Positions 19,450 through 61,931 of a DNA stretch of 64,000 bases are shown here, in pieces. Origin of the DNA: a virus (taxonomy: Duplodnaviria > Heunggongvirae > Uroviricota > Caudoviricetes); the IMG/VR virus record IMGVR_UViG_3300045988_141797. One strand, written 5' to 3'. The stretch's first letter is position 1, and each line of letters opens with the position of its first letter. The notes under the pieces were generated by a model, which saw nothing but the letters and a program-made list of their open reading frames with translations, was not told the DNA's origin and ran no database searches. The translations under genes were made by a program, and so were the position numbers.

Positions 19450-19530
19450 GGTTAAACCCTAAATTCGGGCGCGGCGTGAAGATTCTTTTGACGAGGTGAC
19501 AATACTCACTTTGTTATTTAGTCAATAGCA

Positions 19531-50420: not shown

Positions 50421-50528
50421 TCCCAGCAATTGCAAGACTGCATCTCGAGGATTTAAGGCACCAAGAAGTGGTATTCAGCATCATTAAAACCTATAATTGC
50501 GTACACATAACGAGTACACGAGGTGTTT

Positions 50529-50750
50529 ATGCAATCCATTAACTTCCGTACCGCGCGTGGCAACCTTTCTGAAGTGCTCAACAATGTTGAAGCCGGGGAA
50601 GAGGTTGAAATCACCCGCAGAGGCCGTGAGCCAGCAGTAATTGTCAGCAAGGCTACTTTCGAAGCCTACAAAAAAGCGGCGCTGGATGCCGAATTTGCAT
50701 CCCTGTTTGACACTCTGGACTCCACCAACAAGGAACTGGTTAACCGATAA
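50529..50750 (+). CDS. phd: Phd antitoxin
   Basis: [39 protein letters not shown]... matches my memory of P1 Phd almost residue for residue. Confidence 0.85.
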
Positions 50751-51130
50751 TGAGGCATATATCACCGGAAGAACTTATTGCGCTTCATGATGCGAATATA
50801 AACCGCTACGGCGGCCTGCCTGGCATGTCAGATCCGGGCAGGGCAGAGGCCATTATCGGGAGAGTCCAGGCCAGAGTTGTGTACGAAGAGATTACCGACC
50901 TTTTCGAAGTCTCCGCCACCTACCTGGTGGCTACAGCGAGAGGGCATATATTCAATGATGCCAATAAGCGTACCGCGCTAAACAGTGCGCTGCTATTTCT
51001 ACGCCGTAACGGTATACAGGTATATGATTCTCCCGTGCTGGTGGAACTTGCGGTGGGGGCTGCAACTGGTGAAATCCCCGTATCTTCAGTAGCGGAAAAA
51101 CTACGTGAACTATATGGTTCCAATATTTGA
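50750..51130 (+). CDS. doc: Doc toxin (Fic-fold kinase)
   Basis: [17 protein letters not shown]...[15 protein letters not shown]; stop/start overlap with phd. Confidence 0.85.
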
Positions 51131-51165: not shown

Positions 51166-52272
51166 TCACTCAATGATTTTTTCTGCTGTCAGCCAGCTAA
51201 TTTCTTGCCTGTCTTTCGGCGGTTTTAGCATGTGGGCGTATTCAGCGACATTCTCCCACGGAATTGTTTTTGCCCACTCAACGATAGCATTGTGATCTGC
51301 AGTGAAGAGTGGAATGGTGTGCGATTTCAACCACTCTAATGTTGTAACGCCATGTTTTTTGGCGTGGTGCTGTGCATGATGCCGGGCTATCACTAGTAAT
51401 GGCATTGTCCATTCACTACCATCAGGCATCGTAAAGCGCATTGTTTTCGGCATATCTGATTCAAGAACAGCCTCCCGAATACCAGGGAACTCACCAAGAA
51501 CCATACGACGGTAGTAATCGCCGTTTTTACCACCATGCGATTTTGCGAACTCATCGAAATAATCTTGAGTGAGAAGAGGTGATTCTTCTGCGTTCAGCTT
51601 AATAGCCGTATAAATACCACATGGATTTTCTTCAGTTTTTGCTCGATCATGATGGGAATCGTAAAAGTGTCCATGTTCCTCCTCTGGAGGAGCAGACGTC
51701 AAAAGTATACGTGAGTCGCCACTAACTAAAGATGCTCTTAACATCCCGAATAGCCGATAGCTTACCAGAGCCGCGTCCATAACAATGATCAGAAGATGTT
51801 CACCATAATACCCGGCTACATCTTCCTCATAATTTAGGCGATATGGTTTAATTTCGCAGCCCCAAGATTTTTGGTAACGATGATTGAGGCCATTTTGAAC
51901 GAGTTGAAAATACTCTCCCAGCAATGGCGCTTTTGTATTAGCTTTCTCCCAATACATGTTCATGAGTGAAAGAGTTACCATTGCATTACGCTCAAAGTCT
52001 GGAGCGACTATGACCGTTTTAGACTCAGGCATCAGGATCGTATAAAGGATACAAATGATAGCCAGAGCAGACTTATGCCCTATCCCATGCGGTGTGGTAA
52101 CGCTGACTGCTGAACCTTTTTGTTGAATCGCCTCAACAATTAGCTTTTGCTGGTGGGTTAACTTAACACCCATCAACTCTTCTGCTGCTAATGCCCAGTC
52201 ATGGCTATATTTGCTTACCAGCTCTCTCCACTCTGGTAATTCGGTGATGTTTTTAGGCGTCAGCATCAGCAT
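51166..52272 (-). CDS. degenerate paralog of the large terminase ATPase domain, no nuclease domain
   Basis: colinear with the N-terminal 300 aa of the 57607-59115 terminase; Walker A interrupted (TPHGIGHKSA vs SGHGTGKSS); Walker B acid lost (LLIIVMDAA vs LLLILDEAS); unrelated C-terminal 100 aa. Confidence 0.6.
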   Translation of the reverse strand: MLMLTPKNITELPEWRELVSKYSHDWALAAEELMGVKLTHQQKLIVEAIQQKGSAVSVTTPHGIGHKSALAIICILYTILMPESKTVIVAPDFERNAMVTLSLMNMYWEKANTKAPLLGEYFQLVQNGLNHRYQKSWGCEIKPYRLNYEEDVAGYYGEHLLIIVMDAALVSYRLFGMLRASLVSGDSRILLTSAPPEEEHGHFYDSHHDRAKTEENPCGIYTAIKLNAEESPLLTQDYFDEFAKSHGGKNGDYYRRMVLGEFPGIREAVLESDMPKTMRFTMPDGSEWTMPLLVIARHHAQHHAKKHGVTTLEWLKSHTIPLFTADHNAIVEWAKTIPWENVAEYAHMLKPPKDRQEISWLTAEKIIE

Positions 52273-53059
52273 CCTCCGCTACCTCTGCCTCCACATCTGC
52301 CGCGACTTCATCGGACTGTTCTTCTTTGGCCTGTTCTGCAATCGCCGCACGGCATTTCGCCCTGGCTGTAGCGATGGCCTCAACTTTCACGTCATTAGGA
52401 ATACTTGAGGTGACATACATATCCAGTTCTTCAGCACGGAATACTGTTTTGTCCAGGAATTCATCAAGCATCCAGGTTAAGGAAAAGTCGCAGGAAATCA
52501 GCTCTACTTCGCCTTCCGCGCCGTTTGGGAAATGGATAAACATCTGCTTGCCCAAGCCAAGCACGCGACAAGCAGCCATCATTACTGCAAGTTCCAGGTC
52601 TTTGTTTTCACCTGCTACTGGTTGATCCACACCAGTAATAGTGCCGTTCAAATGGATATTATATGGCTGATATTTAGAGATGCGTTCTACACGCCATGTG
52701 CCGGTTAAGGTTCCCTGGCGGAAGATTATTGGCGTGACCGAAAGCGACAGCTCTCGAATGAGTTGTTGTGCTATGGCTGGGTCATACAGGGGATCTAACG
52801 CGATGCATCCATAAGACTGCGCCAGTTCAAACAATTCTTCCTGTGTGCACTGAATGTCTCTTGCCGTAATAAAACGTCTGACTCCCGTTTTTCCGTCACG
52901 CCAGATAGCAATGCCATTCTCACTATCTAACTCTTCGTCTAAACCCAGGTATGTAAGGATGGTTCGCTCAATGGTGGCAAAGGGCAGGGACATATCATCG
53001 TTTACATCCACCAGCAGGCCGTTACGCAGGCGATATTGAATGTTTTTGGTATTTTCCAC
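52253..53059 (-). CDS. hypothetical protein with acidic C-terminal tail
   Basis: 268-aa ORF, overlaps downstream gene by 20 nt. Confidence 0.3.
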   Translation of the reverse strand: MENTKNIQYRLRNGLLVDVNDDMSLPFATIERTILTYLGLDEELDSENGIAIWRDGKTGVRRFITARDIQCTQEELFELAQSYGCIALDPLYDPAIAQQLIRELSLSVTPIIFRQGTLTGTWRVERISKYQPYNIHLNGTITGVDQPVAGENKDLELAVMMAACRVLGLGKQMFIHFPNGAEGEVELISCDFSLTWMLDEFLDKTVFRAEELDMYVTSSIPNDVKVEAIATARAKCRAAIAEQAKEEQSDEVAADVEAEVAEDADADA

Positions 53060-53065
53060 GTTAAA

Positions 53066-53716
53066 TCACTCCACAACAAACCAGTCACAGGCCAGTAAAT
53101 CATCCACAGACGGCAACCAAACGCTGTCCATATTTTGTGCATCTTTCAATACAAAATGGTCACCATAAGGAACGTGAATGCCGTGTAAATTGACGCTTCC
53201 AGCGAGAACTAACCAGCAGAATTGCTTTTCGCCTTTCCACTCGCGTCGGGCAACTTTCTTGCCTTCCTTCAACCACATTAGCGCATCAGAGAAGTCGGCT
53301 GCTTCAAGGTCGATTTCTTCTTGCTGGGTGGTGATGCCACCAGCAGAAATAGTTACGCTCCCAGTAAGATTAATCATCACGCCGTTGTCATCCGTAATGA
53401 TGACCGTGGTTCCATTTTTGGAGGCGTCGTTAACCAGGCCATAGCATTCCTCAAATGGTTTCTCCGGGGCATAGAACAGATAACCGTTTTCATAAACGAT
53501 CAGATACCCGCCAGTTTTTGGTCGGTGTTTTTGTAAAAACATTGCGTCAACACAAACTGTTGCCCCTTTTGGTTCAACGAGTTCGATGCAGCCCCAAAGT
53601 GGGGCATCAGTTACTCCGAAAATAACAACATTTTTGATTTTCGATGCACTAACGTTTTTGTGAGCTTTGTATTTGGGAAGGAACTTAAAAAGCTCTTTCG
53701 TGGGCATGTTATTCAT
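53066..53716 (-). CDS. two-domain protein with C-terminal DUF2829 (Tad2-like) domain
   Basis: C-terminal 75 aa DFSDALMWLKEGKKVARREWKG...VWLPSVDDLLACDWFVVE matches the DUF2829 pattern. Confidence 0.5.
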   Translation of the reverse strand: MNNMPTKELFKFLPKYKAHKNVSASKIKNVVIFGVTDAPLWGCIELVEPKGATVCVDAMFLQKHRPKTGGYLIVYENGYLFYAPEKPFEECYGLVNDASKNGTTVIITDDNGVMINLTGSVTISAGGITTQQEEIDLEAADFSDALMWLKEGKKVARREWKGEKQFCWLVLAGSVNLHGIHVPYGDHFVLKDAQNMDSVWLPSVDDLLACDWFVVE

Positions 53717-53730
53717 AGCCTTTCCTCTAC

Positions 53731-54225
53731 TTAAAACTTTGCGTACTGAAGCGGTGTACGCTTGATTTCAATGCGGTCTTCCGATGTGCTACCAAAGCCA
53801 CCAGCACCTCGCTCTGTTTCATCGAGTTCATCAACTTCTACCAGCGATACCGGTTCAACACGCTCAAAAATGCCTTGCATGACCGCCATTCCTGGCTTGA
53901 GGCAAACGCCTTCACCACCGGGATCTGTAATCAGTTTTGCTTTGATTTCACCGCGATAATCGGAGTCGATAATTCCTACGCAGTTAGCCAGGCGCGTATG
54001 CTTTTTGCAGCCCAATCCGGAACGAGGATAAAGTTTCAGACACCAGCCAGGAGGGATCGCCATAGCGAGGCCGGTATGCACCCACCAGCTTGAGGAAATA
54101 GCGCCGTTGCTATTGATACCTGGCGTTATTTCAACAGCAATAAAATCCATCGCCGCCGATCCGGCGGTGGCGTAAACGGGGAGTCTTGCCGCCGGATGAA
54201 GGCGTTTCACTTTCACGTTAATCAT
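53731..54225 (-). CDS. dut: dUTP diphosphatase
   Basis: dUTPase motifs AGSAAMDF, RSGLG, GIIDSDYRGE, ERGAGGFGSTS. Confidence 0.85.
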   Translation of the reverse strand: MINVKVKRLHPAARLPVYATAGSAAMDFIAVEITPGINSNGAISSSWWVHTGLAMAIPPGWCLKLYPRSGLGCKKHTRLANCVGIIDSDYRGEIKAKLITDPGGEGVCLKPGMAVMQGIFERVEPVSLVEVDELDETERGAGGFGSTSEDRIEIKRTPLQYAKF

Positions 54226-54710
54226 TGCTTTTTAGCTCTCCGGGTAAATGTATAAATCCGGCGTTTGATATGCGGAGCGGTCGGAACGGAGACGCAGGTA
54301 TTCTCGATAACACCTTGTTCCTCCAGCGATCGCACAGCACGCAAGAACTGTGATGCATCACCACCGCCAGACAGCCAGAATTTGCGGGCATAGACGCTGC
54401 CATTACGGATAATTTCTGCGATCACCCGCGCTTGCGTCTGGCTTTCTCGATAGCCAAAGAGTTCTCTTGCCTCTCCTTGTGGGATAGCCAACTGATAGCC
54501 TTTCCCGCTACGGTGACGGACAAAACCGTGAGCAATGAGGTTCTTCAGCTCATTTCGGGTGCGGATACACCCGTACTCAGGGAACTGTGTGTTGATATCA
54601 CCAGGCTTATGCCATTCATCAGGACTATCAGCCAGGAGGGACAGAAGTTTCCCTGACAGCTCAGGATTAGTGGTTGGATAGCAGTTCAGGGATGGGTAGT
54701 AAGTTTTCAT
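54222..54710 (-). CDS. hypothetical protein
   Basis: 162-aa ORF, overlap-coupled. Confidence 0.3.
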   Translation of the reverse strand: MKTYYPSLNCYPTTNPELSGKLLSLLADSPDEWHKPGDINTQFPEYGCIRTRNELKNLIAHGFVRHRSGKGYQLAIPQGEARELFGYRESQTQARVIAEIIRNGSVYARKFWLSGGGDASQFLRAVRSLEEQGVIENTCVSVPTAPHIKRRIYTFTRRAKKQ

Positions 54711-55051
54711 TTGCGCCCCCTTGCCGGATAGCGCCCGGCATTTGCATCAGGAGCAATGAAGCCGCTGGTGGGGCGAGTGAAAACATGGTTAATTTTCTCG
54801 GTCATAGCGCGATAATTTTCCTGATAGTGGGCCAGGAGTTTTTCAGCAGCAATGACGGTTACTTTCCGGACGTAGCGTTCAGCTTCCTCCAGATTTCGCC
54901 AGTTTTTTTCGAGGGTAAACACGGGAACGGCATCAAGTCCGGTCATAACACCGAACACCACGACCGCCTGGTCGCGCTTAACGCCCGCAGTGAAGGTTAT
55001 GGTGTAACCGTCAACAGTGAAGCGTTTTGATTCCGTAATACGATTGTGCAA
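54707..55051 (-). CDS. hypothetical protein, first gene of operator-controlled operon
   Basis: 114-aa ORF. Confidence 0.3.
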   Translation of the reverse strand: MHNRITESKRFTVDGYTITFTAGVKRDQAVVVFGVMTGLDAVPVFTLEKNWRNLEEAERYVRKVTVIAAEKLLAHYQENYRAMTEKINHVFTRPTSGFIAPDANAGRYPARGRK

Positions 55052-55105
55052 AGTACCCTCCGCAATAGGCGAGGGTACTTTACATTAAAATGCACTGTCT
55101 AAAAA

Positions 55106-55130
55106 GATTGTTAGAAAATTAATTTATGAA
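55106..55130. promoter_or_regulatory. operator site
   Basis: GATTGTTAGAAAATTAATTTATGAA upstream of the 55051 operon, overlapping the Cre-like gene 3' end. Confidence 0.5.
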
Positions 55131-56152
55131 TCCATCAGGCGACTATTTGCACCAACGGATGCCCCGCTACGGCGCAAATATCGCATAAGTGTTTCGGGCT
55201 TTTTCCATGTGCCTTCCTGCATGATCTCGACCATTGACACCTGTTTCTCAGCCATATCAATTGCCGCACCAACACGCGCACTATGGCCTGTCCACGTCCG
55301 GTATCTTCCCTTGTTCGGCGTGGCATCTCGTTTGTTCAGCAACCCCCAGGCATCGCTGAATATTTTCTCCATTGCAGGTGCAGTAAGGGGCGTTGTCGTG
55401 ATTCTGGCCTTATTACTGCGGTGTATTGGCGGGAATAGCACCGCGTCCGGATGTTCTCGAAGTCCGGACACCTCCAGCCAGTCGTTCAGTACGGCGGTAG
55501 TGTAACGAGAAAGCACCTTATCAAGTCCGGCGGCGGTCGTGATGGTCTTCGTGTGTGAAATATGCAGCGTTACAGTGTCACCTGTTTGGTCCAGATCTCC
55601 GACGCGGATGCGCGAGATTTCTGACATACGCATCAGGGTATTGTATGCCACGAAGAGAAACGCCCGATTGCGCAGGTCCACCAGCCGCTCGGAACGGGAC
55701 AGCAACACGTCGAGCAATTTCAGATCATCCCACCGCAACGGTATAGCCTGGCCTGTTCGCTCGCCTTTTTCCGTTGCCGCTTCGCGCCGGATGCGCCGCA
55801 TGGCCAGAGACACACTTTTATCGTCCGACAGCGGCGGGAGGCCACATTGCGAAAGCAGCATGTTAAGCATGGCATAGTGCTTATCAATGGTGGTCGAAGC
55901 CAGATCGGCCTCATGCAACTGGAGAAGATACTCGCGGGCCATTTCCGGCGTAATCGGGAACCAGGGGCGCTGGCGCGAGTTACACCACCGCGCCCAGGAA
56001 TGAAACACCAGACGGAGATCACGAAGTGTATTTGGGGCATAAGCTCCCTGGTCGTTCATGAACTGCATAAAGTTTTTTGCAGCTTCCTGGTATTCGGTGC
56101 CAATATCGCGCAGAAAACCACCAGAACCGCCGGAGATAACTAGTTCACCCAT
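55124..56152 (-). CDS. Cre-like tyrosine site-specific recombinase
   Basis: colinear with P1 Cre from memory (WTGHSARVGAA, RIRVGDL, MRRIRRE, conserved C-terminal Tyr) but clearly diverged. Confidence 0.8.
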   Translation of the reverse strand: MGELVISGGSGGFLRDIGTEYQEAAKNFMQFMNDQGAYAPNTLRDLRLVFHSWARWCNSRQRPWFPITPEMAREYLLQLHEADLASTTIDKHYAMLNMLLSQCGLPPLSDDKSVSLAMRRIRREAATEKGERTGQAIPLRWDDLKLLDVLLSRSERLVDLRNRAFLFVAYNTLMRMSEISRIRVGDLDQTGDTVTLHISHTKTITTAAGLDKVLSRYTTAVLNDWLEVSGLREHPDAVLFPPIHRSNKARITTTPLTAPAMEKIFSDAWGLLNKRDATPNKGRYRTWTGHSARVGAAIDMAEKQVSMVEIMQEGTWKKPETLMRYLRRSGASVGANSRLMDS

Positions 56153-56303
56153 GAAACTATTAAACCTCTATATACAGATAACGCTACGTGAAAAATAGAA
56201 AACTGACAGGGTAGTTATAAGTTAATTTTCAAAATTCAAGCCTTTGATTCGAGGCATGATTTTTCATCCTTGTCAATACTGCCTGTTTACTGGAGATTAT
56301 AGC

Positions 56304-56337
56304 CTAACTTTAAATAATGCCAATTATTTAAAGTTAG
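56304..56337. other. lox-like recombination site (13-bp inverted arms, 8-bp asymmetric spacer)
   Basis: CTAACTTTAAATA-ATGCCAAT-TATTTAAAGTTAG, perfect arms, about 150 bp upstream of the Cre-like start; arms share TAACTT...ATA with loxP. Confidence 0.65.
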
Positions 56338-56416
56338 AAATCGGGACTTTTTCCCAAAAAAACACCGACCAGATCACTTCGCAAATCCGTCAGCCATGCG
56401 GTAGCCGCTCCTGGTT

Positions 56417-56521
56417 ACATTTTCTAATAGGAACAATCAAAAAAAAGCGGTTTTATCCTTTACTCACCTTGTTATTCGGCATAAATTTGTCACAGGACTT
56501 TTATGTTAGAAAACTAAATCG
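56417..56521. promoter_or_regulatory. pair of inverted operator half-sites upstream of the 56532 ORF
   Basis: ACATTTTCTAATAG at 56417-56430 and TGTTAGAAAACT at about 56505-56516. Confidence 0.45.
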
Positions 56522-56531
56522 AGTAGGAATA

Positions 56532-57569
56532 ATGAGTAAGAAGTCGATCGAGAATGAGTACAAACGGTTCCTGCAAACCGCTGAACGGTGGAAAGAGCTG
56601 GTGGTCGCAAACTCTGTTTTCCATGATACCAGTTATGTTGGCGAGGAATTTCGCCATGTTGCATTAACACATGATCCGGCTGTATTAGAAGAAGCTGAAA
56701 AATGCATAGCCGAATGGAAAGCCTTTGTTGATCTGTGTCGCAAGGATGATGACAAAGCCTCAAACATTGTTGAGTCGGTTTATTTACCGATCCCATTCAT
56801 TGTTGAGGATACTAATCAGAGTACGCATATCGTTATGCAAAGCGCAACCACAACGAGAACATTTACGCGCGAAGACCTGTTGAAAAAATACGATAAAACT
56901 ATAAAGAAAAGCATGAAAAACAGGATATTTTCACAGGTTGTCGGTGCGCTTGAAGAAGAACGCAGATTCTTCGCCGCTGAACGTGAGGGCGAGGTATACC
57001 GCGCAAGAAAAGAAGGTTATACCGATGTGGTGATTACCACCAATATTGAGGGCAACAATGGACTTTCACGCTTCAGAGTGGGTACGCACGGTGCGCTGAT
57101 CTTTGCAAAAAAAGCAAACACAGAGATTCCCGTTGTTAACAACGTTGGTGAGCGCCGCACCCTTACCATTTACACTGGCATTAAACCGCTTCCGTGCGGA
57201 CTTCTCGGCGAATTTGACCTTTATCGGGTTCGTGATCTGGAAAAGCAGCAGCCAAGCTACGTCGTGAAGTCATATATCCTGAGAAACATTGATATCCGCA
57301 ATCAGAGTTTAAAAAACAAATCAGATAAAATGCTGGCCGAAGCCGATCCAGCCATACACCAGATCGTTAGCCGGAAAATTCAAGAGGCTAAAGATGCAAT
57401 GGCAAGGCTGGATAAAATGGACCTGGAACTACTGGAAGTTATGATTGCCTCCGGCGATGACCTGACAGGCATCCGCCTTACTGAAGCCAGGAAAAAATAC
57501 GGTAAAAGCGTTGAAGAACGCTATGGGTACACATTCACACAAACGATGTACGCGGCAAAACTCTGGTAA
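56532..57569 (+). CDS. hypothetical protein, candidate master repressor by position
   Basis: 345 aa from ATG 56532; sits between lox/cre and terminase genes and is preceded by operator half-sites; ORF-track start 56244 rejected. Confidence 0.3.
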   Translation: MSKKSIENEYKRFLQTAERWKELVVANSVFHDTSYVGEEFRHVALTHDPAVLEEAEKCIAEWKAFVDLCRKDDDKASNIVESVYLPIPFIVEDTNQSTHIVMQSATTTRTFTREDLLKKYDKTIKKSMKNRIFSQVVGALEEERRFFAAEREGEVYRARKEGYTDVVITTNIEGNNGLSRFRVGTHGALIFAKKANTEIPVVNNVGERRTLTIYTGIKPLPCGLLGEFDLYRVRDLEKQQPSYVVKSYILRNIDIRNQSLKNKSDKMLAEADPAIHQIVSRKIQEAKDAMARLDKMDLELLEVMIASGDDLTGIRLTEARKKYGKSVEERYGYTFTQTMYAAKLW

Positions 57570-57606: not shown

Positions 57607-59115
57607 TTAAATGTCAATATCAGGAATATCCACTTCTGCCAACACCTGATCGCGGAATGTTGCGAGTTCTGCGCCAATGTCTTCATTAGCAGGCACGTAA
57701 TCCACCAGCATAGTGAAGCAGTAGGTATCCCATCTGTCCGGTGACTTGATGTTTAACTTCTGCCGCATGTGCTCCTTGCGCATCATCGCTACCTTCCCTT
57801 CTTCGTTAAGCATATACGGGATTTTTGATGCCTGATCTGCGGTTTTGGGGTCACTATCGATACGCATACGCCCGGATTTAATGGCATCCCCTGCCATAAT
57901 ATTGGCGTAAGCACGCTGATTGACAAAGCGTTCTCTGTCTCTCAGCGCAAACATAGGCTTACCCCAACGGATGCGAACGGGATTAGCACCACGGCGGACA
58001 AGCTGCGCACACGTATCTGAACCAAAGCCATCAGCATCCACAGCAATGGTGATGTTCGGGTATTTATCAGGAGTGCATTCGTTATAGATAAAGTCGGCAA
58101 AAGCCAACGGGTCCATAGTGCCTGGCATCTCCAGTATCTTAAAGTTTACAACGCGTCGTTTCTCACGATAACCGGATACTTTGCATATATTGAGCACCGA
58201 TTTGTCGCGACCATTACCGACGTCAGCGGTCGCTACCCAGCCCCAATCTTTCTCCAGCAACACTTTACGCCGTGCGGCGCGGTCGCACTCATCACGACCA
58301 AGCAAATACCCGTTAATTGCACGCGGGAACTGGCCCAGCACCTTAACCATGTACTCCAGCGAATCCCTGCCGCCGTACTCCAGCAATTTCTCACGAATAA
58401 AGCTCGGTTCAACGAATGGTGATTCTTCAGAGTTAAGGACTATTGCCGTCCAGACACCTTCCGGATTGCCTTCTGCCTTTGCCCTTGAATGGTGAGATTC
58501 ATAAAAGTAACCGCTTGGACGCGTAGGCTGGGAAAGCATGAGCATACGGTTATCTTTCTGCGTTAACGCCCCCGTCATGACGTTAATCGCCTTATCGGAT
58601 ATGCCCGATGCTTCATCAAGGATTAGCAGTAAATGCTCAGCGTGCTCCCCCGCCAGTGCCTCTTCGTTACCGAGTCGATAACCTTTACAGAGCACTTCCC
58701 ATATCCCTTTACGGGAACGCTCATAAAACATGGTGTCAGACAGGACAAAATAGGTCTGTAACCAGCCGTGACGCTTAACAGCATTCGCCCAAAACTGTTT
58801 CACGTATTTGAATACGCCTGTTTTTACCTGGCCTATTTTGTTCGCAACAATAATGACGCGGGCGTCGGGGAACAGGATCATGAAAATTAGTAGCAACATC
58901 GCGGTAAGGGACGACTTACCCGTTCCGTGTCCGGACGTAACGGTCGTCCTGCTCCCCGTCTCCTGCACTGACTGAATGATCTGCTGCTGCTGGTGGGAGG
59001 GGAACATCCCAAAAATATCGACAACCGCCTGGGTAAAGTTGTATCGATACCTGATAACCATATCGCGCCAACGTGGATCACTGGTGACGCACTTAATCTT
59101 ACGACCACCAGCCAT
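57607..59115 (-). CDS. terminase large subunit (PacB-like)
   Basis: Walker A SGHGTGKSS, Walker B LLLILDEAS, C-terminal nuclease-type acidic residues; 502 aa. Confidence 0.8.
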   Translation of the reverse strand: MAGGRKIKCVTSDPRWRDMVIRYRYNFTQAVVDIFGMFPSHQQQQIIQSVQETGSRTTVTSGHGTGKSSLTAMLLLIFMILFPDARVIIVANKIGQVKTGVFKYVKQFWANAVKRHGWLQTYFVLSDTMFYERSRKGIWEVLCKGYRLGNEEALAGEHAEHLLLILDEASGISDKAINVMTGALTQKDNRMLMLSQPTRPSGYFYESHHSRAKAEGNPEGVWTAIVLNSEESPFVEPSFIREKLLEYGGRDSLEYMVKVLGQFPRAINGYLLGRDECDRAARRKVLLEKDWGWVATADVGNGRDKSVLNICKVSGYREKRRVVNFKILEMPGTMDPLAFADFIYNECTPDKYPNITIAVDADGFGSDTCAQLVRRGANPVRIRWGKPMFALRDRERFVNQRAYANIMAGDAIKSGRMRIDSDPKTADQASKIPYMLNEEGKVAMMRKEHMRQKLNIKSPDRWDTYCFTMLVDYVPANEDIGAELATFRDQVLAEVDIPDIDI

Positions 59116-60479
59116 TAGTCATCCTCCGGCTGGTCTATCGCAATCTCGTCATCTACAGCATCAAAACCGGTATCCCCCGCGTCATAATCACCGTAGATAT
59201 CAGCCGTGGCGGAAGGGTCTATATTCAGGTCTTCATCATTGGCCTCAAATTCACCGGCTTTACGTTCTCCGTTCCGGTCGTAATCCCCCATCCCAAGCCT
59301 ATCAACGATTTTCGCTACTTCAGCCCGGCGTTGTGCAAGCCATTGTGGGAGTCCAGCTTGTTGCTCGGCAAACTGTTTCGCCTCTTTATCCAGTTGCTCA
59401 TCATCAACATCGTTAACGTCAGAAACCGGAGGCTCCAGAAGTGAGATCGCTTTTGCCGCTCGTGCCGCCAGGATAGCCGGGACACTGACGCCCTGCCGCT
59501 CGATATATTCAGCAACACCTATATCATCCAGCTCCTCGCGCTCACGCATACGTATAGCGGCGGCGATAACCCTGGCGGCGCGTGCGTCAGCGCCAATGCG
59601 ATACTCAATCTCCTTGCCACGCTGCTCGGCTTGTAGGCGGGCAATCGCCAGTTTTTCTCTGGCCTCAGCCTCCCTGAATGCCTGCTGACGCGCGCCCTGC
59701 GCAAGTTTTTCATCCCCCTGGCGTAGCTTCTGCTCGTTCTGATAGATGGCTGCCAGCCTGGTGATAAAGTCATTCATGTAGTAGGCCGCATCGCTGATCA
59801 GTCCGAGAAGACGCTGCCCTGGGTGCATCCCCTCTGGCTGTGTATCACCGAGGGCGTCAATCTCTTCCTGTAGTCGCTCCGCTTCCTGGTCAACGATAGC
59901 CTGATACTGAATTGCTCGTTCCTGCGCCATCTGTATCGCAAGTCGTAAATGTTCAGTCGCGCCGTTCTTCATCATCTCACGGGCGACGTTGGTGGCAGGC
60001 AAAGTGGTGCTTTGAGCTGATGAATCAGGGATCATTTGCAATGATCCCTTGTTTCGTTGGGCTTTATCGCTGCTTTTAGGGATCATTTCTCCCATTTCAT
60101 CACAAAATGATCCCTTCACATCCTTGTGTATCTTGTTGTTATTACTTGGCTTTTCTTTGTGATCCGCATTTTGTTTTTGCGGCATGGCGCGGAACCGTCC
60201 ACCAGCCAACGATTTGTCAGTTTTTGTAAATTCTGTGCTTTTATTAGCCTTTTTTTGCTCTTTTTTTGAGCCGGTGGCGCTGCTTTTTGCGCGCTGTTTT
60301 GTACTTTTCCCGGTAGCCTTAGCTTTCGCCTTAACCTCATTTTTTTTCATATTGAGATGCTTTCTGGCGGTGTTAAAGCTGAGGTCATGCTGCTCGCAAT
60401 ATTCTTTTATGGTGATCCCGGTTGCTTCTCTTAACTCCAGGAACTTAGCTCGATGCGCTTCCCAGTTAATTAACGTCAT
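59115..60479 (-). CDS. terminase small subunit (PacA-like), contains pac-like site
   Basis: N-terminal HTH, overlap-coupled to large terminase; GATC heptamer cluster within N-terminal coding region. Confidence 0.55.
   Translation of the reverse strand: MTLINWEAHRAKFLELREATGITIKEYCEQHDLSFNTARKHLNMKKNEVKAKAKATGKSTKQRAKSSATGSKKEQKKANKSTEFTKTDKSLAGGRFRAMPQKQNADHKEKPSNNNKIHKDVKGSFCDEMGEMIPKSSDKAQRNKGSLQMIPDSSAQSTTLPATNVAREMMKNGATEHLRLAIQMAQERAIQYQAIVDQEAERLQEEIDALGDTQPEGMHPGQRLLGLISDAAYYMNDFITRLAAIYQNEQKLRQGDEKLAQGARQQAFREAEAREKLAIARLQAEQRGKEIEYRIGADARAARVIAAAIRMREREELDDIGVAEYIERQGVSVPAILAARAAKAISLLEPPVSDVNDVDDEQLDKEAKQFAEQQAGLPQWLAQRRAEVAKIVDRLGMGDYDRNGERKAGEFEANDEDLNIDPSATADIYGDYDAGDTGFDAVDDEIAIDQPEDD
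60028..60167. repeat. pac-like cluster of GATC-containing heptamers
   Basis: GGGATCA 60028, TGATCCC 60042, GGGATCA 60079, TGATCCC 60108, TGATCCG 60161; five Dam sites in about 140 bp. Confidence 0.55.
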
Positions 60480-60976: not shown

Positions 60977-61359
60977 TACCAGCGGGATAAACGAACAACA
61001 TGCTTAACTTTTGCCTCCCACTTCCCTTTATGTTTGTTGATCACCGCCTGCGCCATCTTCAGACTGGCTTCAAAATCGGCTTTTCGACCACTATTGCCCA
61101 CCAGCAACGCTCCGTCTATTTCAGGTAAGCATAAGTAATCCTGCTCGACGGTAAGCGGCATTGATGATGTAACCTGGCAGGCTTTCCATCTGAAGCGTAT
61201 GCGCACACTCCTGACTGACATCACGACATAACCTGATATTGTGCTCTTGTGTCCGGCGTCTGTGCGTGTAGCCTTGCATGATGTTATCTTGCAGGTGATG
61301 ATATCCCAACCAATGTGCATCGCATCCTCAATGCGTAATTTAGTAGCCTCGTACATCAA
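60976..61359 (-). CDS. hypothetical protein
   Basis: 127-aa ORF. Confidence 0.3.
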   Translation of the reverse strand: MMYEATKLRIEDAMHIGWDIITCKITSCKATRTDAGHKSTISGYVVMSVRSVRIRFRWKACQVTSSMPLTVEQDYLCLPEIDGALLVGNSGRKADFEASLKMAQAVINKHKGKWEAKVKHVVRLSRW

Positions 61360-61931
61360 AAAACCTCCCAGTCAGTAGCGATAATATCAACACCAGTTGC
61401 AAACCAGTCTGTCTGTGCCTGTAAATCCCCATTCATCATTACCAGGCGAGGCATAACCATCACATCACAACCTTCAACAATATCGAATGCCTCTTCCGGC
61501 AGGAATTCGACGAGCTTTTCTTTGCTGCCAACACTGCCACGGAGCATCGATATATAGCTCCCTTTAGGCCATGATGTTCGCCGGGCATCAAGCCCCTTCA
61601 TCATCCAGTAAAAGGCCGATGAGAACGGGATGTTCTTTTTGGCGATGAGCACGTTATTCGCTTCTGTGTACTTCAGGAACTTAACTAACCTTACCATCGA
61701 CTCGGATAACGCAATGTACGGCTCATGATTGATTGCTGACACACTTACGCCGTGCAGTCCAACACTTACCACTGTCATATCACCGTTCTGTGCGGTTTCG
61801 ATGTTGACGCCTTTACGAACTAACGCTGCATAAAGCTCCTCGCGCTTTTGCGTCCAGCATTCTCGTCGCCCTATAAAGTCACTCAAAACGAGATCATCTT
61901 CTAAATACGCGTTATCGTTCGCCGTTAACAT
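61356..61931 (-). CDS. second DUF2829 (Tad2-like) domain protein
   Basis: C-terminal half FSSAFYWMMKGLDARRTSWPKG...DLQAQTDWFATGVDIIATDWEVF parallels the DUF2829 block of the 53066 ORF. Confidence 0.4.
   Translation of the reverse strand: MLTANDNAYLEDDLVLSDFIGRRECWTQKREELYAALVRKGVNIETAQNGDMTVVSVGLHGVSVSAINHEPYIALSESMVRLVKFLKYTEANNVLIAKKNIPFSSAFYWMMKGLDARRTSWPKGSYISMLRGSVGSKEKLVEFLPEEAFDIVEGCDVMVMPRLVMMNGDLQAQTDWFATGVDIIATDWEVF

Follow-up and report, generated by a model that had tools for sequence, protein, structure and literature searches.

Large terminases (TerL) are highly conserved phage proteins and major targets of bacterial pattern-recognition immunity. In the phage-plasmids P1 and D6, the large terminase is PacB, which is encoded in a late pacAB operon. 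A second, ATPase-only protein of this kind is encoded by phage T4: vs.8 is a homolog of the T4 terminase ATPase domain, has intact Walker A and B motifs and activates EcAvs2 (bioRxiv 10.64898/2026.04.30.721860). Two other described loci are close in gene content to the one reported here. The first is the D6 operon dre-orf117-orf116-dut-DUF2829-isaA (MF356679 / NC_050154 / AY753669). The second is the isaA-IS1-isaB locus of P1, a known variable hotspot (region RD-2 of P1-like plasmids, PMC6906374); isaA, isaB and ssb of P1 are non-essential (PMC10695390). The present work concerns a 64,000-nucleotide (nt) stretch of viral DNA (IMG/VR record IMGVR_UViG_3300045988_141797, hereafter the window), which belongs, as a D6-like element, to the P1 family of phage-plasmids. 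Its minus-strand operon at positions 51166-55130 ends with a gene for a 368-amino-acid protein which, as judged from its sequence, is derived from a terminase and cannot be a conventional ATPase or nuclease.

When the 368-amino-acid protein was compared by BLASTP with PacB of the window, its residues 7-263 aligned with residues 8-264 of the terminase (35% identity over 258 residues, E 2e-50). This agreed with a preliminary description of the locus, in which the protein had been reported as colinear with the ATPase domain of PacB. Both proteins matched phrog_5902 and phrog_2 (terminase large subunit), the paralog matching phrog_2 with an E value of 1.4e-7. The N-terminal ~260 residues of PacB from P1 and D6 were homologous to the paralog with 35-40% identity, and the fold motifs were shared. 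Downstream of this region the likeness ended: when residues 264-368 were compared with the PacB nuclease domain by hhalign, no relation was found (probability 0.3%), which upheld the proposed replacement of the nuclease domain by an unrelated tail of ~100 residues. One terminase feature out of five was present in the paralog, namely an N-terminal ASCE ATPase domain homologous to TerL; the Walker A motif, the Walker B motif with the C-motif, the RNase-H-like nuclease domain and a place in a late packaging operon with a small terminase were all lacking. Unlike PacB, the paralog is found in an early operator-linked operon, is dispensable and is hypervariable.

The state of the nucleotide-binding site was established from an alignment of three PacBs (window, a second D6-like plasmid and P1) with seven paralogs. 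In the window, the P-loop reads TPHGIGHKS in the paralog and SGHGTGKSS in PacB, and the Walker B strings are LLIIVMDAA and LLLILDEAS, respectively. The interrupted P-loop and the lost Walker B acid had thus been quoted correctly, and this degeneracy extended to the whole family. The three PacBs were invariant at TSGHGTGKS and LLxIxDEASG, and the Walker A (GTGKS) and Walker B (LDEAS) motifs of the window's PacB were intact and conserved with P1 PacB. In contrast, the seven paralogs carried TTPxGIG followed by HKS, QKT, RPQ, RAP or ETS at Walker A, with GTGKS in none of them, and IIVMDAA, IIVTEAA, IIVAEAA, FIIVDSA, FIVVNAA or FIVINSA at Walker B, so that the Walker A and B residues were intact in no paralog. 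The C-motif SQPT of PacB was changed to SAPP, SIPS or SKPS. Among the residues invariant in PacB, the Walker A lysine and serine, the Walker B aspartate, the glycine following DEAS and the glutamine and threonine of SQPT occurred in no paralog. With the catalytic residues lost family-wide and the nuclease domain absent, the earlier view that this protein neither hydrolyses ATP nor cuts DNA is probably right.

The structural signature of the domain was kept. Q42, G63, G65, R188, S193 and P195 were retained, together with SRxLLxSxP, GxFYDSHH, NPxG, GG and YRRxxxGxFP, and the region before Walker A was kept as well (cross-family identity 0.39-0.40 for residues 1-22 and 45-66). Across the alignment of the paralog family, 43 residues were invariant, structural motifs among them. 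The ratio of nonsynonymous to synonymous substitution rates (dN/dS) of the ATPase-like domain was 0.42, 0.30 and 0.26 against three relatives. An intact frame of 364-368 amino acids was found in lineages down to 48-49% identity over the whole protein and 44% over the ATPase-like domain; one family member, P0007, was truncated (266 amino acids). These values indicate a gene under purifying selection and rule out a pseudogene arising as a split or frameshifted copy of the terminase, the outcome against which the preliminary description had cautioned.

To describe the variation of the ATPase-like domain, its alleles were compared in six D6-like elements. Three types were distinguished: type A (window and an Escherichia marmotae plasmid), type B (plasmid L005, 74% identical to A) and type C (plasmids L004, L017 and L019, ~50% identical to A and 53% to B). 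Between L005 and the three type C plasmids, protein identity was 98% for PacA, 99% for PacB, 100% for C1, 94-98% for IsaA and 96-98% for the tail domain, and it was 53% for the ATPase-like domain. The sliding nucleotide identity between L005 and L004 was 95-100% over most of isaA, 33-80% over the stretch made up of the final ~35 codons of isaA and the whole ATPase-like domain, and 92-100% over the tail, doc and phd. From these comparisons, the presumably dead ATPase domain is a hypervariable cassette with sharp breakpoints at the domain borders. It varied independently of PacA and PacB, the latter being 92-100% conserved among the D6-like plasmids compared.

The ATPase-like domains of all paralog alleles were equidistant from all PacB lineages (33-40% identity), and mimicry of particular PacB lineages by particular alleles, which had been considered, was seen for none of them. 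The alleles were 44-89% identical to each other, and the PacBs of P1 and D6 are 61% identical in their ATPase domains. The equidistance and the spread of the alleles point to a single ancient duplication, after which evolution became faster. In addition, the acidic C-terminal helix of IsaA, encoded by the last ~35 codons of the preceding gene (52253-52360), diverged along with the ATPase-like domain of the paralog, while elsewhere isaA kept 97-100% identity. This co-variation suggests that the C-terminus of IsaA contacts the variable domain.

The tail belongs to a previously unnamed phage domain family linked to recombination modules, for which Pfam holds no family. An HMMER search with residues 264-368 retrieved 211 representative clusters (E <= 1e-3), mostly stand-alone proteins of ~100 amino acids, which shared the motif MPDGSxW...IAxxRA...DTLPLF...DWAxNNMNW...GWxNG and four near-invariant tryptophans. 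The domain had a confident predicted fold in a structure model, and the P1-type and D6-type copies were 59% identical. Where the context could be interpreted, the gene content around the tail domain was that of recombination or replication modules. In Xanthomonas phage CP2, the domain ends a DUF1351 coiled-coil protein encoded just 5' of Erf, exonuclease, endonuclease and SSB genes; in Bordetella phage PHB04, its gene follows RecE; in the P1-like Cronobacter phage JK004, it lies two genes after the Ban helicase. For JK004 gene_33, a role as the ATPase part split from the stand-alone tail gene was considered and rejected, since this gene codes for a DnaB-like helicase. The fusion partners found among the longer tail homologs (n=45) were DUF1351 (3), N4 gp49/Sf6 gp66 (1) and a Lar restriction-alleviation domain (1). 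DUF1351 proteins are reported to occupy the slot of the Mu Gam homologs beside erf, sak4 and recT in modules of single-strand annealing proteins (PMC8093625). The proteins of the CP2 ORF36 type (phrog_17928/DUF1351-coiled-coil) thus carry the same ~90-residue C-terminal domain as the paralog, but their N-terminal partner is DUF1351 with a coiled coil, whereas in the paralog it is the degenerate terminase ATPase domain.

A gene of swapped domain order was observed in another P1-like element (L007:8001-8741, P0016). It codes for the tail domain first, followed by a degenerate PacB-like domain with the P-loop GSGTGTTT, and it is cut by a Tn3-family transposase gene; its neighbours are a gene for a Ref-like RecA-dependent nuclease and an AbiH gene. 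This gene is a second case, independent of the first, in which the tail is joined to a degenerate terminase ATPase domain.

The distribution of the paralog was examined in PLSDB. Among 747 plasmids with a PacB-type hit, 164 also carried the full-length paralog, always annotated as 'hypothetical protein'; the gene is common, being present in about one fifth of the P1/D6-type phage-plasmids. Among 5,426 complete E. coli genomes, DNA nearly identical to the locus was found in plasmids only. The paralog was always located 3' of isaA, the 3' end of which overlaps its start by 20 nt, and this overlap was conserved. In P1-type genomes (for example MH422554), the interval between ssb and hxr holds an isaA homolog overlapped by a paralog of 364 amino acids; in D6-type genomes, the pair follows dre, dut and the Tad2-like gene. 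These two placements, after ssb and after the dre operon, indicate that isaA and the paralog form a separate, mobile module of two genes, which occurs in two distinct early operons. Both contexts are linked to C1 operators, namely Ossb, which controls ssb in P1, and the operator of the window.

The paralog is absent from P1 and D6, and the lack of the gene in both laboratory archetypes is the reason why it was overlooked; no paper describing a terminase paralog in P1-like elements was found. In P1, the same ssb-hxr locus is isaA-IS1-isaB, and it is exactly this locus that the isaA-paralog pair fills in P1-type genomes without IS1, whereas the pair of the window lies in another operon, downstream of dre. 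When P1 (L003:5440-5640) was compared with MH422554 (L001:6880-7080), the homology stopped exactly 9 nt into the paralog open reading frame (ORF; GTGATTAAT), and beyond this point P1 has a terminator-like hairpin, IS1 and an unrelated isaB. This break beside IS1 accounts for the lack of any study of the gene in P1. IsaB of P1 was considered as a remnant of the paralog split by IS1 and was rejected, as there was no similarity and the P1 homology ends at these 9 nt.

In D6, dre is followed by two small ORFs and by the dut, DUF2829 and isaA genes, and a pdcA-like ORF stands in the place of the paralog. The window and D6 agree in gene order and in the operator and hairpin that follow dre, and the protein identity is 72-94%; the DUF2829 protein of D6 is shorter (146 amino acids). 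The preliminary description had regarded the six genes as one unit not known to have been described before. This did not hold, the D6 operon without the paralog being already deposited and isaA and the paralog being a separate module. What is new here is that the extra copy of the terminase ATPase is a pseudoenzyme, carries a new domain and is hypervariable in the manner of a cassette.

The operon is associated with an operator, as had been described; the element is not the half-site at 55106-55130 but a full 17-bp asymmetric site of the monovalent C1 type. With at most 3 mismatches, the motif had 13 sites in the window against 0.29 expected, and none of 100 shuffled sequences reached 13. The sites were located at 19529/19576, 27654/27667, 38457, 39088/39101, 44201/44214, 55109, 56504 and 60946/60959, with the consensus TGTTAGAAAAT(T/C)AA. 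Four overlapping inverted pairs were found, which recall the bivalent operators of P1 but are offset by 13 bp (11 bp in P1). Sites lay directly upstream of c1 (56504) and of lpa (60946/60959; the identity of Lpa was confirmed), mirroring Oc1 and Olpa of P1. The P1 operator consensus ATTGCTCTAATAAATTT had no match in the window; its absence and the enrichment of the other motif show that the element uses an operator motif of its own. Dispersed asymmetric 17-bp sites, single and in overlapping pairs, their position upstream of c1 and lpa, and the presence of a C1 homolog would make this a P1-type C1-controlled operon. The operator after dre was kept at the same position in D6, in L005 and in other D6-like plasmids. 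Its P1 analogues downstream of cre are the C1 operators Oref and Omat, the latter overlapping the ref stop codon.

A sigma-70 promoter match (11 of 12 positions) was found by dre at 56323-56296, and dre is a possible source of read-through transcription into the operon. The late-promoter box of P1, ACAAGTGACT, was not enriched in the window (3 matches against 3.4 expected) and was therefore uninformative on late expression. The 114-amino-acid ORF begins with TTG; the first base of this codon and the GGAGGG Shine-Dalgarno sequence fall within the 3' arm of a strong, conserved RNA hairpin, which lies just after dre and sequesters them. In D6, an A-to-G change keeps the pairing as G-U. This hairpin could be a terminator, an attenuator or a translational control element.

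Taken together, we tentatively favour a reading which we hold to be quite possible while stopping short of calling it probable: the paralog would be an early-made, non-catalytic binding protein of terminase fold with a role in conflict. It would descend from a PacB ATPase domain duplicated long ago and since turned into a terminase-derived pseudoenzyme, which keeps the residues that define the fold but no longer has the lysine of Walker A, the aspartate of Walker B or the coupling motif. Its nuclease domain would have been exchanged for a small phage domain, which elsewhere stands alone or on accessory proteins of recombination modules. Such a protein would work by binding, without ATP hydrolysis, DNA cutting or translocation; it would probably be active early after induction or infection and be dispensable for packaging. 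The dead ATPase domain would be the variable part, facing a partner or pursuer that itself diversifies, and the tail the constant part, linking the paralog to recombination and DNA-end machinery. In a conflict between phage and host or between phages, the protein may serve as a terminase-shaped adaptor or mimic, which either engages factors recognising terminase-like proteins or DNA ends, or is itself pressed to escape such recognition. A counter-defence role would fit the cassette-like hypervariability of the paralog and of the Tad2-like gene of the same operon. A dead, hypervariable copy of the terminase ATPase offers a handle on the ways in which phages use or hide the terminase fold outside packaging.

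Several observations weigh against a binding protein made early for conflict. We infer the timing of expression of the operon by analogy with P1, and no sigma-70 promoter match was found near 55109-55125 or between the operator and the first ORF. Some nucleotide binding may remain, given the retained Q-motif and glycines and the sequence GIGQKT in some alleles. Hypervariability bounded by conserved flanks can also result from ordinary mosaic recombination among old lineages, without an arms race, and the dN/dS of the paralog is below 1. The paralog, IsaA and the 114- and 162-amino-acid proteins had no match in Pfam, NCBIfam or PADLOC. Fold searches with the tail, including BFVD, returned only uncharacterised family members and no known fold relative, and those with IsaA returned no informative relative. 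Finally, the stand-alone tail genes of metagenomic origin lie in arrays of small genes, which are uninformative. Sequence searches of the PDB with PacB, the paralog family, the tail and IsaA gave nothing useful.

The gene content around the tail would also suit an accessory factor for DNA ends or recombination, an explanation which we regard as rather unlikely. Here, the terminase-like domain would bind DNA, possibly injected or pac-cut ends, and the tail would recruit or block a partner in recombination, replication or exonuclease action; in a slot like that of Gam, the protein would aid cyclisation or protect ends. The tail domain is indeed found beside Erf/exonuclease/SSB, RecE and the Ban helicase, and it is fused to DUF1351 proteins, which share a slot with the Mu Gam homologs. 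The module itself follows ssb in P1-type genomes and dre and dut in the window, and the gene of swapped domain order adjoins a Ref-like nuclease. However, these contexts come from a handful of genomes and are anecdotal, those from metagenomes being uninformative; a TerL ATPase domain free of ATP is not known to bind DNA, and the restriction of the hypervariability to the ATPase-like domain is not explained by such a role in itself.

That variability would suit a decoy or inhibitor of terminase-sensing immunity, of which the decoy had been proposed in the preliminary description; the early-made dead ATPase domain would bind Avs1-3, Upx-type or other sensors of the TerL ATPase fold without activating them and would so spare PacB. 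The early, operator-linked context and the Tad2-family gene in the same operon favour such a role, as do two properties of Avs2: its recognition of the terminase dispenses with the nuclease domain, and the ATPase-only T4 vs.8 engages EcAvs2 (bioRxiv 10.64898/2026.04.30.721860). Like vs.8, the paralog is an extra phage-encoded copy of the terminase ATPase without a nuclease domain, restricted to one phage lineage; the two were likened by description and not by sequence, and the paralog differs in its lost Walker motifs and its added C-terminal domain. Avs2 uses ATP/Mg bound to the terminase and a bridging ATP, and the known ATPase-like binders, vs.8 and Ksap1/2, activate the sensor and do not block it (bioRxiv 10.64898/2026.04.30.721860). 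The loss of the ATP-holding residues, together with look-alikes that trigger the sensor, counts against a simple decoy. Moreover, the alleles are equidistant from all PacB lineages, with no lineage-specific mimicry visible, and the presence of the tail in recombination modules is left unexplained. A decoy seems to us unlikely, and the loss of the nucleotide site could equally be an escape from terminase sensors.

A more elaborate form of this idea, an immune-evasion device, is decidedly doubtful. The paralog would then be an early hypervariable terminase mimic which titrates or blinds ATPase-fold sensors (Avs1-3, Upx or others); its loss of ATP binding would prevent activation of the sensor, with IsaA and the tail domain as cofactors. 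If true, no earlier anti-defence protein would be known to descend from the same phage protein that serves as the target of immunity, and the diversity of its alleles would record an arms race with terminase sensors.

A role in packaging had also been proposed, and it was weakened by our results. As a regulator or poison, the paralog would have kept the surfaces that bind PacA or PacB, and would restrain the phage's own pacase or poison that of competing P1-like phages (superinfection exclusion). The full ATPase-domain fold, including the region before Walker A, is kept, and pacAB is present in the same genome. However, the ATPase-like domain does not co-vary with PacA and PacB, its alleles being 47% different between plasmids whose PacA and PacB are 98-100% identical, and the gene lies in early operons and not in the late pac operon. 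P1, D6 and about 78% of the related plasmids package normally without it. The C-terminal domain of TerL usually docks the enzyme on the portal in other phages, and the paralog has no such domain. We consider this explanation quite improbable.

Decay of a duplicated terminase is very improbable: catalytic motifs that are lost and vary between members, the truncated P0007 and another copy cut by a transposon would suit a relic, but the frame is intact across divergent lineages with the low dN/dS given above, and the 43 invariant residues, the conserved isaA overlap and the 59% identity of the tail between P1-type and D6-type copies speak against it.

The coordinates of the paralog, of the other members of the operon and of the neighbouring genes are collected in Table 1.

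Table 1. Features of the operon and its surroundings in the window
Feature	Position	Strand	Remarks
phd/doc	50523-51130		six-ORF operon converges on them
pseudo-terminase, 368 aa (amino acids): PacB-like ATPase-fold domain (residues 1-263) and unrelated tail (residues 264-368)	51166-52272	-	
tail domain, conserved, ~100 aa	51169-51483	-	motif MPDGSxW...DTLPLF...DWAxNNMNW...GWxNG
ATPase-like domain, predicted to be catalytically dead; hypervariable cassette	51484-52272	-	family motif alignments; allele comparison
isaA homolog, 268 aa	52253-53059	-	P1 IsaA, 47% identity over 262 aa, E 1e-85
216-aa protein: variable N-terminal half and Tad2/DUF2829 domain (residues 137-216)	53066-53716	-	
dUTPase, trimeric type	53731-54225	-	Pfam PF00692; phrog_135
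162-aa protein, D6-lineage-specific	54222-54710	-	phrog_6669; tblastn matches in D6 records only
114-aa protein, first gene of the operon	54707-55051	-	phrog_1968
RNA hairpin, conserved	55051-55084	-	-23.5 kcal/mol, z -4.6; kept in D6, L004 and L005
operator, monovalent C1 type, 17 bp, asymmetric	55109-55125	+	TGTTAGAAAATTAATTT; overlaps dre stop codon
dre, Cre-like tyrosine recombinase	55124-56152	-	Pfam Phage_integrase; 94% identical to D6 Dre
C1-type repressor, 345 aa	56532-57569	+	start MSKKSIENEY; homologs 345 aa; operator-like site 56504-56520 just 5'
pacB, functional large terminase, 502 aa; parent family of the paralog	57607-59115	-	phrog_2, E 4e-41
pacA	59115-60479		adjoins pacB

Six tightly packed minus-strand ORFs lie 3' of dre, the last one ending at 51166, and between adjacent ORFs there is either an overlap of 4 to 20 nt or a gap of 6 to 14 nt. 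The coordinates given for these genes in the preliminary description were reproduced. The paralog had also been placed next to the real terminase; in fact pacB lies 5.3 kb away from the paralog, with c1 and dre between pacB and the operon. The ORF of 114 amino acids was considered as a homolog of P1 C8 and was rejected, the two not being homologous.

The assignments of the dUTPase and of a DUF2829 domain related to Tad2 were both borne out. The dUTPase exceeded the curated cut-offs (116.8 against 102.55 bits for TIGR00576 and 116.7 against 103 for NF001862), and GIIDSDYRGE and RGAGGFGST were recognised as motifs in its translation. Over its last 80 residues, the 216-amino-acid protein matched Pfam PF11195 (E 2.8e-18, 66.7 bits against a cut-off of 25), and the protein matched the solved Tad2 proteins ModTad2 (9eib, E 7.5e-11), 8v3e (1e-10) and SPO1 Gp34.65 (5e-6). 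It is this C-terminal part that would correspond to Tad2, the sponge for glyco-cyclic ADP-ribose (gcADPR) that counters Thoeris, whereas in the window the domain is fused to a variable N-terminal region of ~135 residues. As DUF2829 also includes AcrIIA7, the fold leaves the ligand of the protein unfixed. Among D6-like plasmids, the length of the Tad2-like protein was 146, 216, 220 or 233 amino acids, with the N-terminal half present or absent. The closest complete relative of the window found was the E. marmotae plasmid pRHBSTW-00605_3, in which the paralog was 97% and most neighbouring genes were 96-100% identical. In comparison with the closest plasmid (L016:8545-9207), the Tad2-like gene was 63% identical and the flanking genes were 96-100% identical, and this gene is a second swapped cassette in the operon.

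A second Tad2-like/DUF2829 protein of 191 amino acids is encoded upstream of lpa/pacA at 61356-61931 on the minus strand (PF11195, E 4.4e-10); its homolog in D6-like plasmids is labelled 'Thoeris anti-defense Tad2 family protein' in RefSeq. With the gene of the operon, the element thus carries two Tad2-family genes.

Over positions 52296-56197, the window had 82% DNA identity with phage D6. The repressor ORF, delimited mechanically, had 441 codons from a TTG start (56244-57569, plus strand), and its homologs have 345 amino acids. The 345-amino-acid product gave a weak match to NF041318 (E 1.8e-5) and was weakly similar to P1 C1. The c1 genes of the D6-like plasmids L004-L006 matched Pfam Phage_P7_repressor_C1 and were 80% identical to c1 of the window, a value which suggests different immunity types among the D6-like plasmids.

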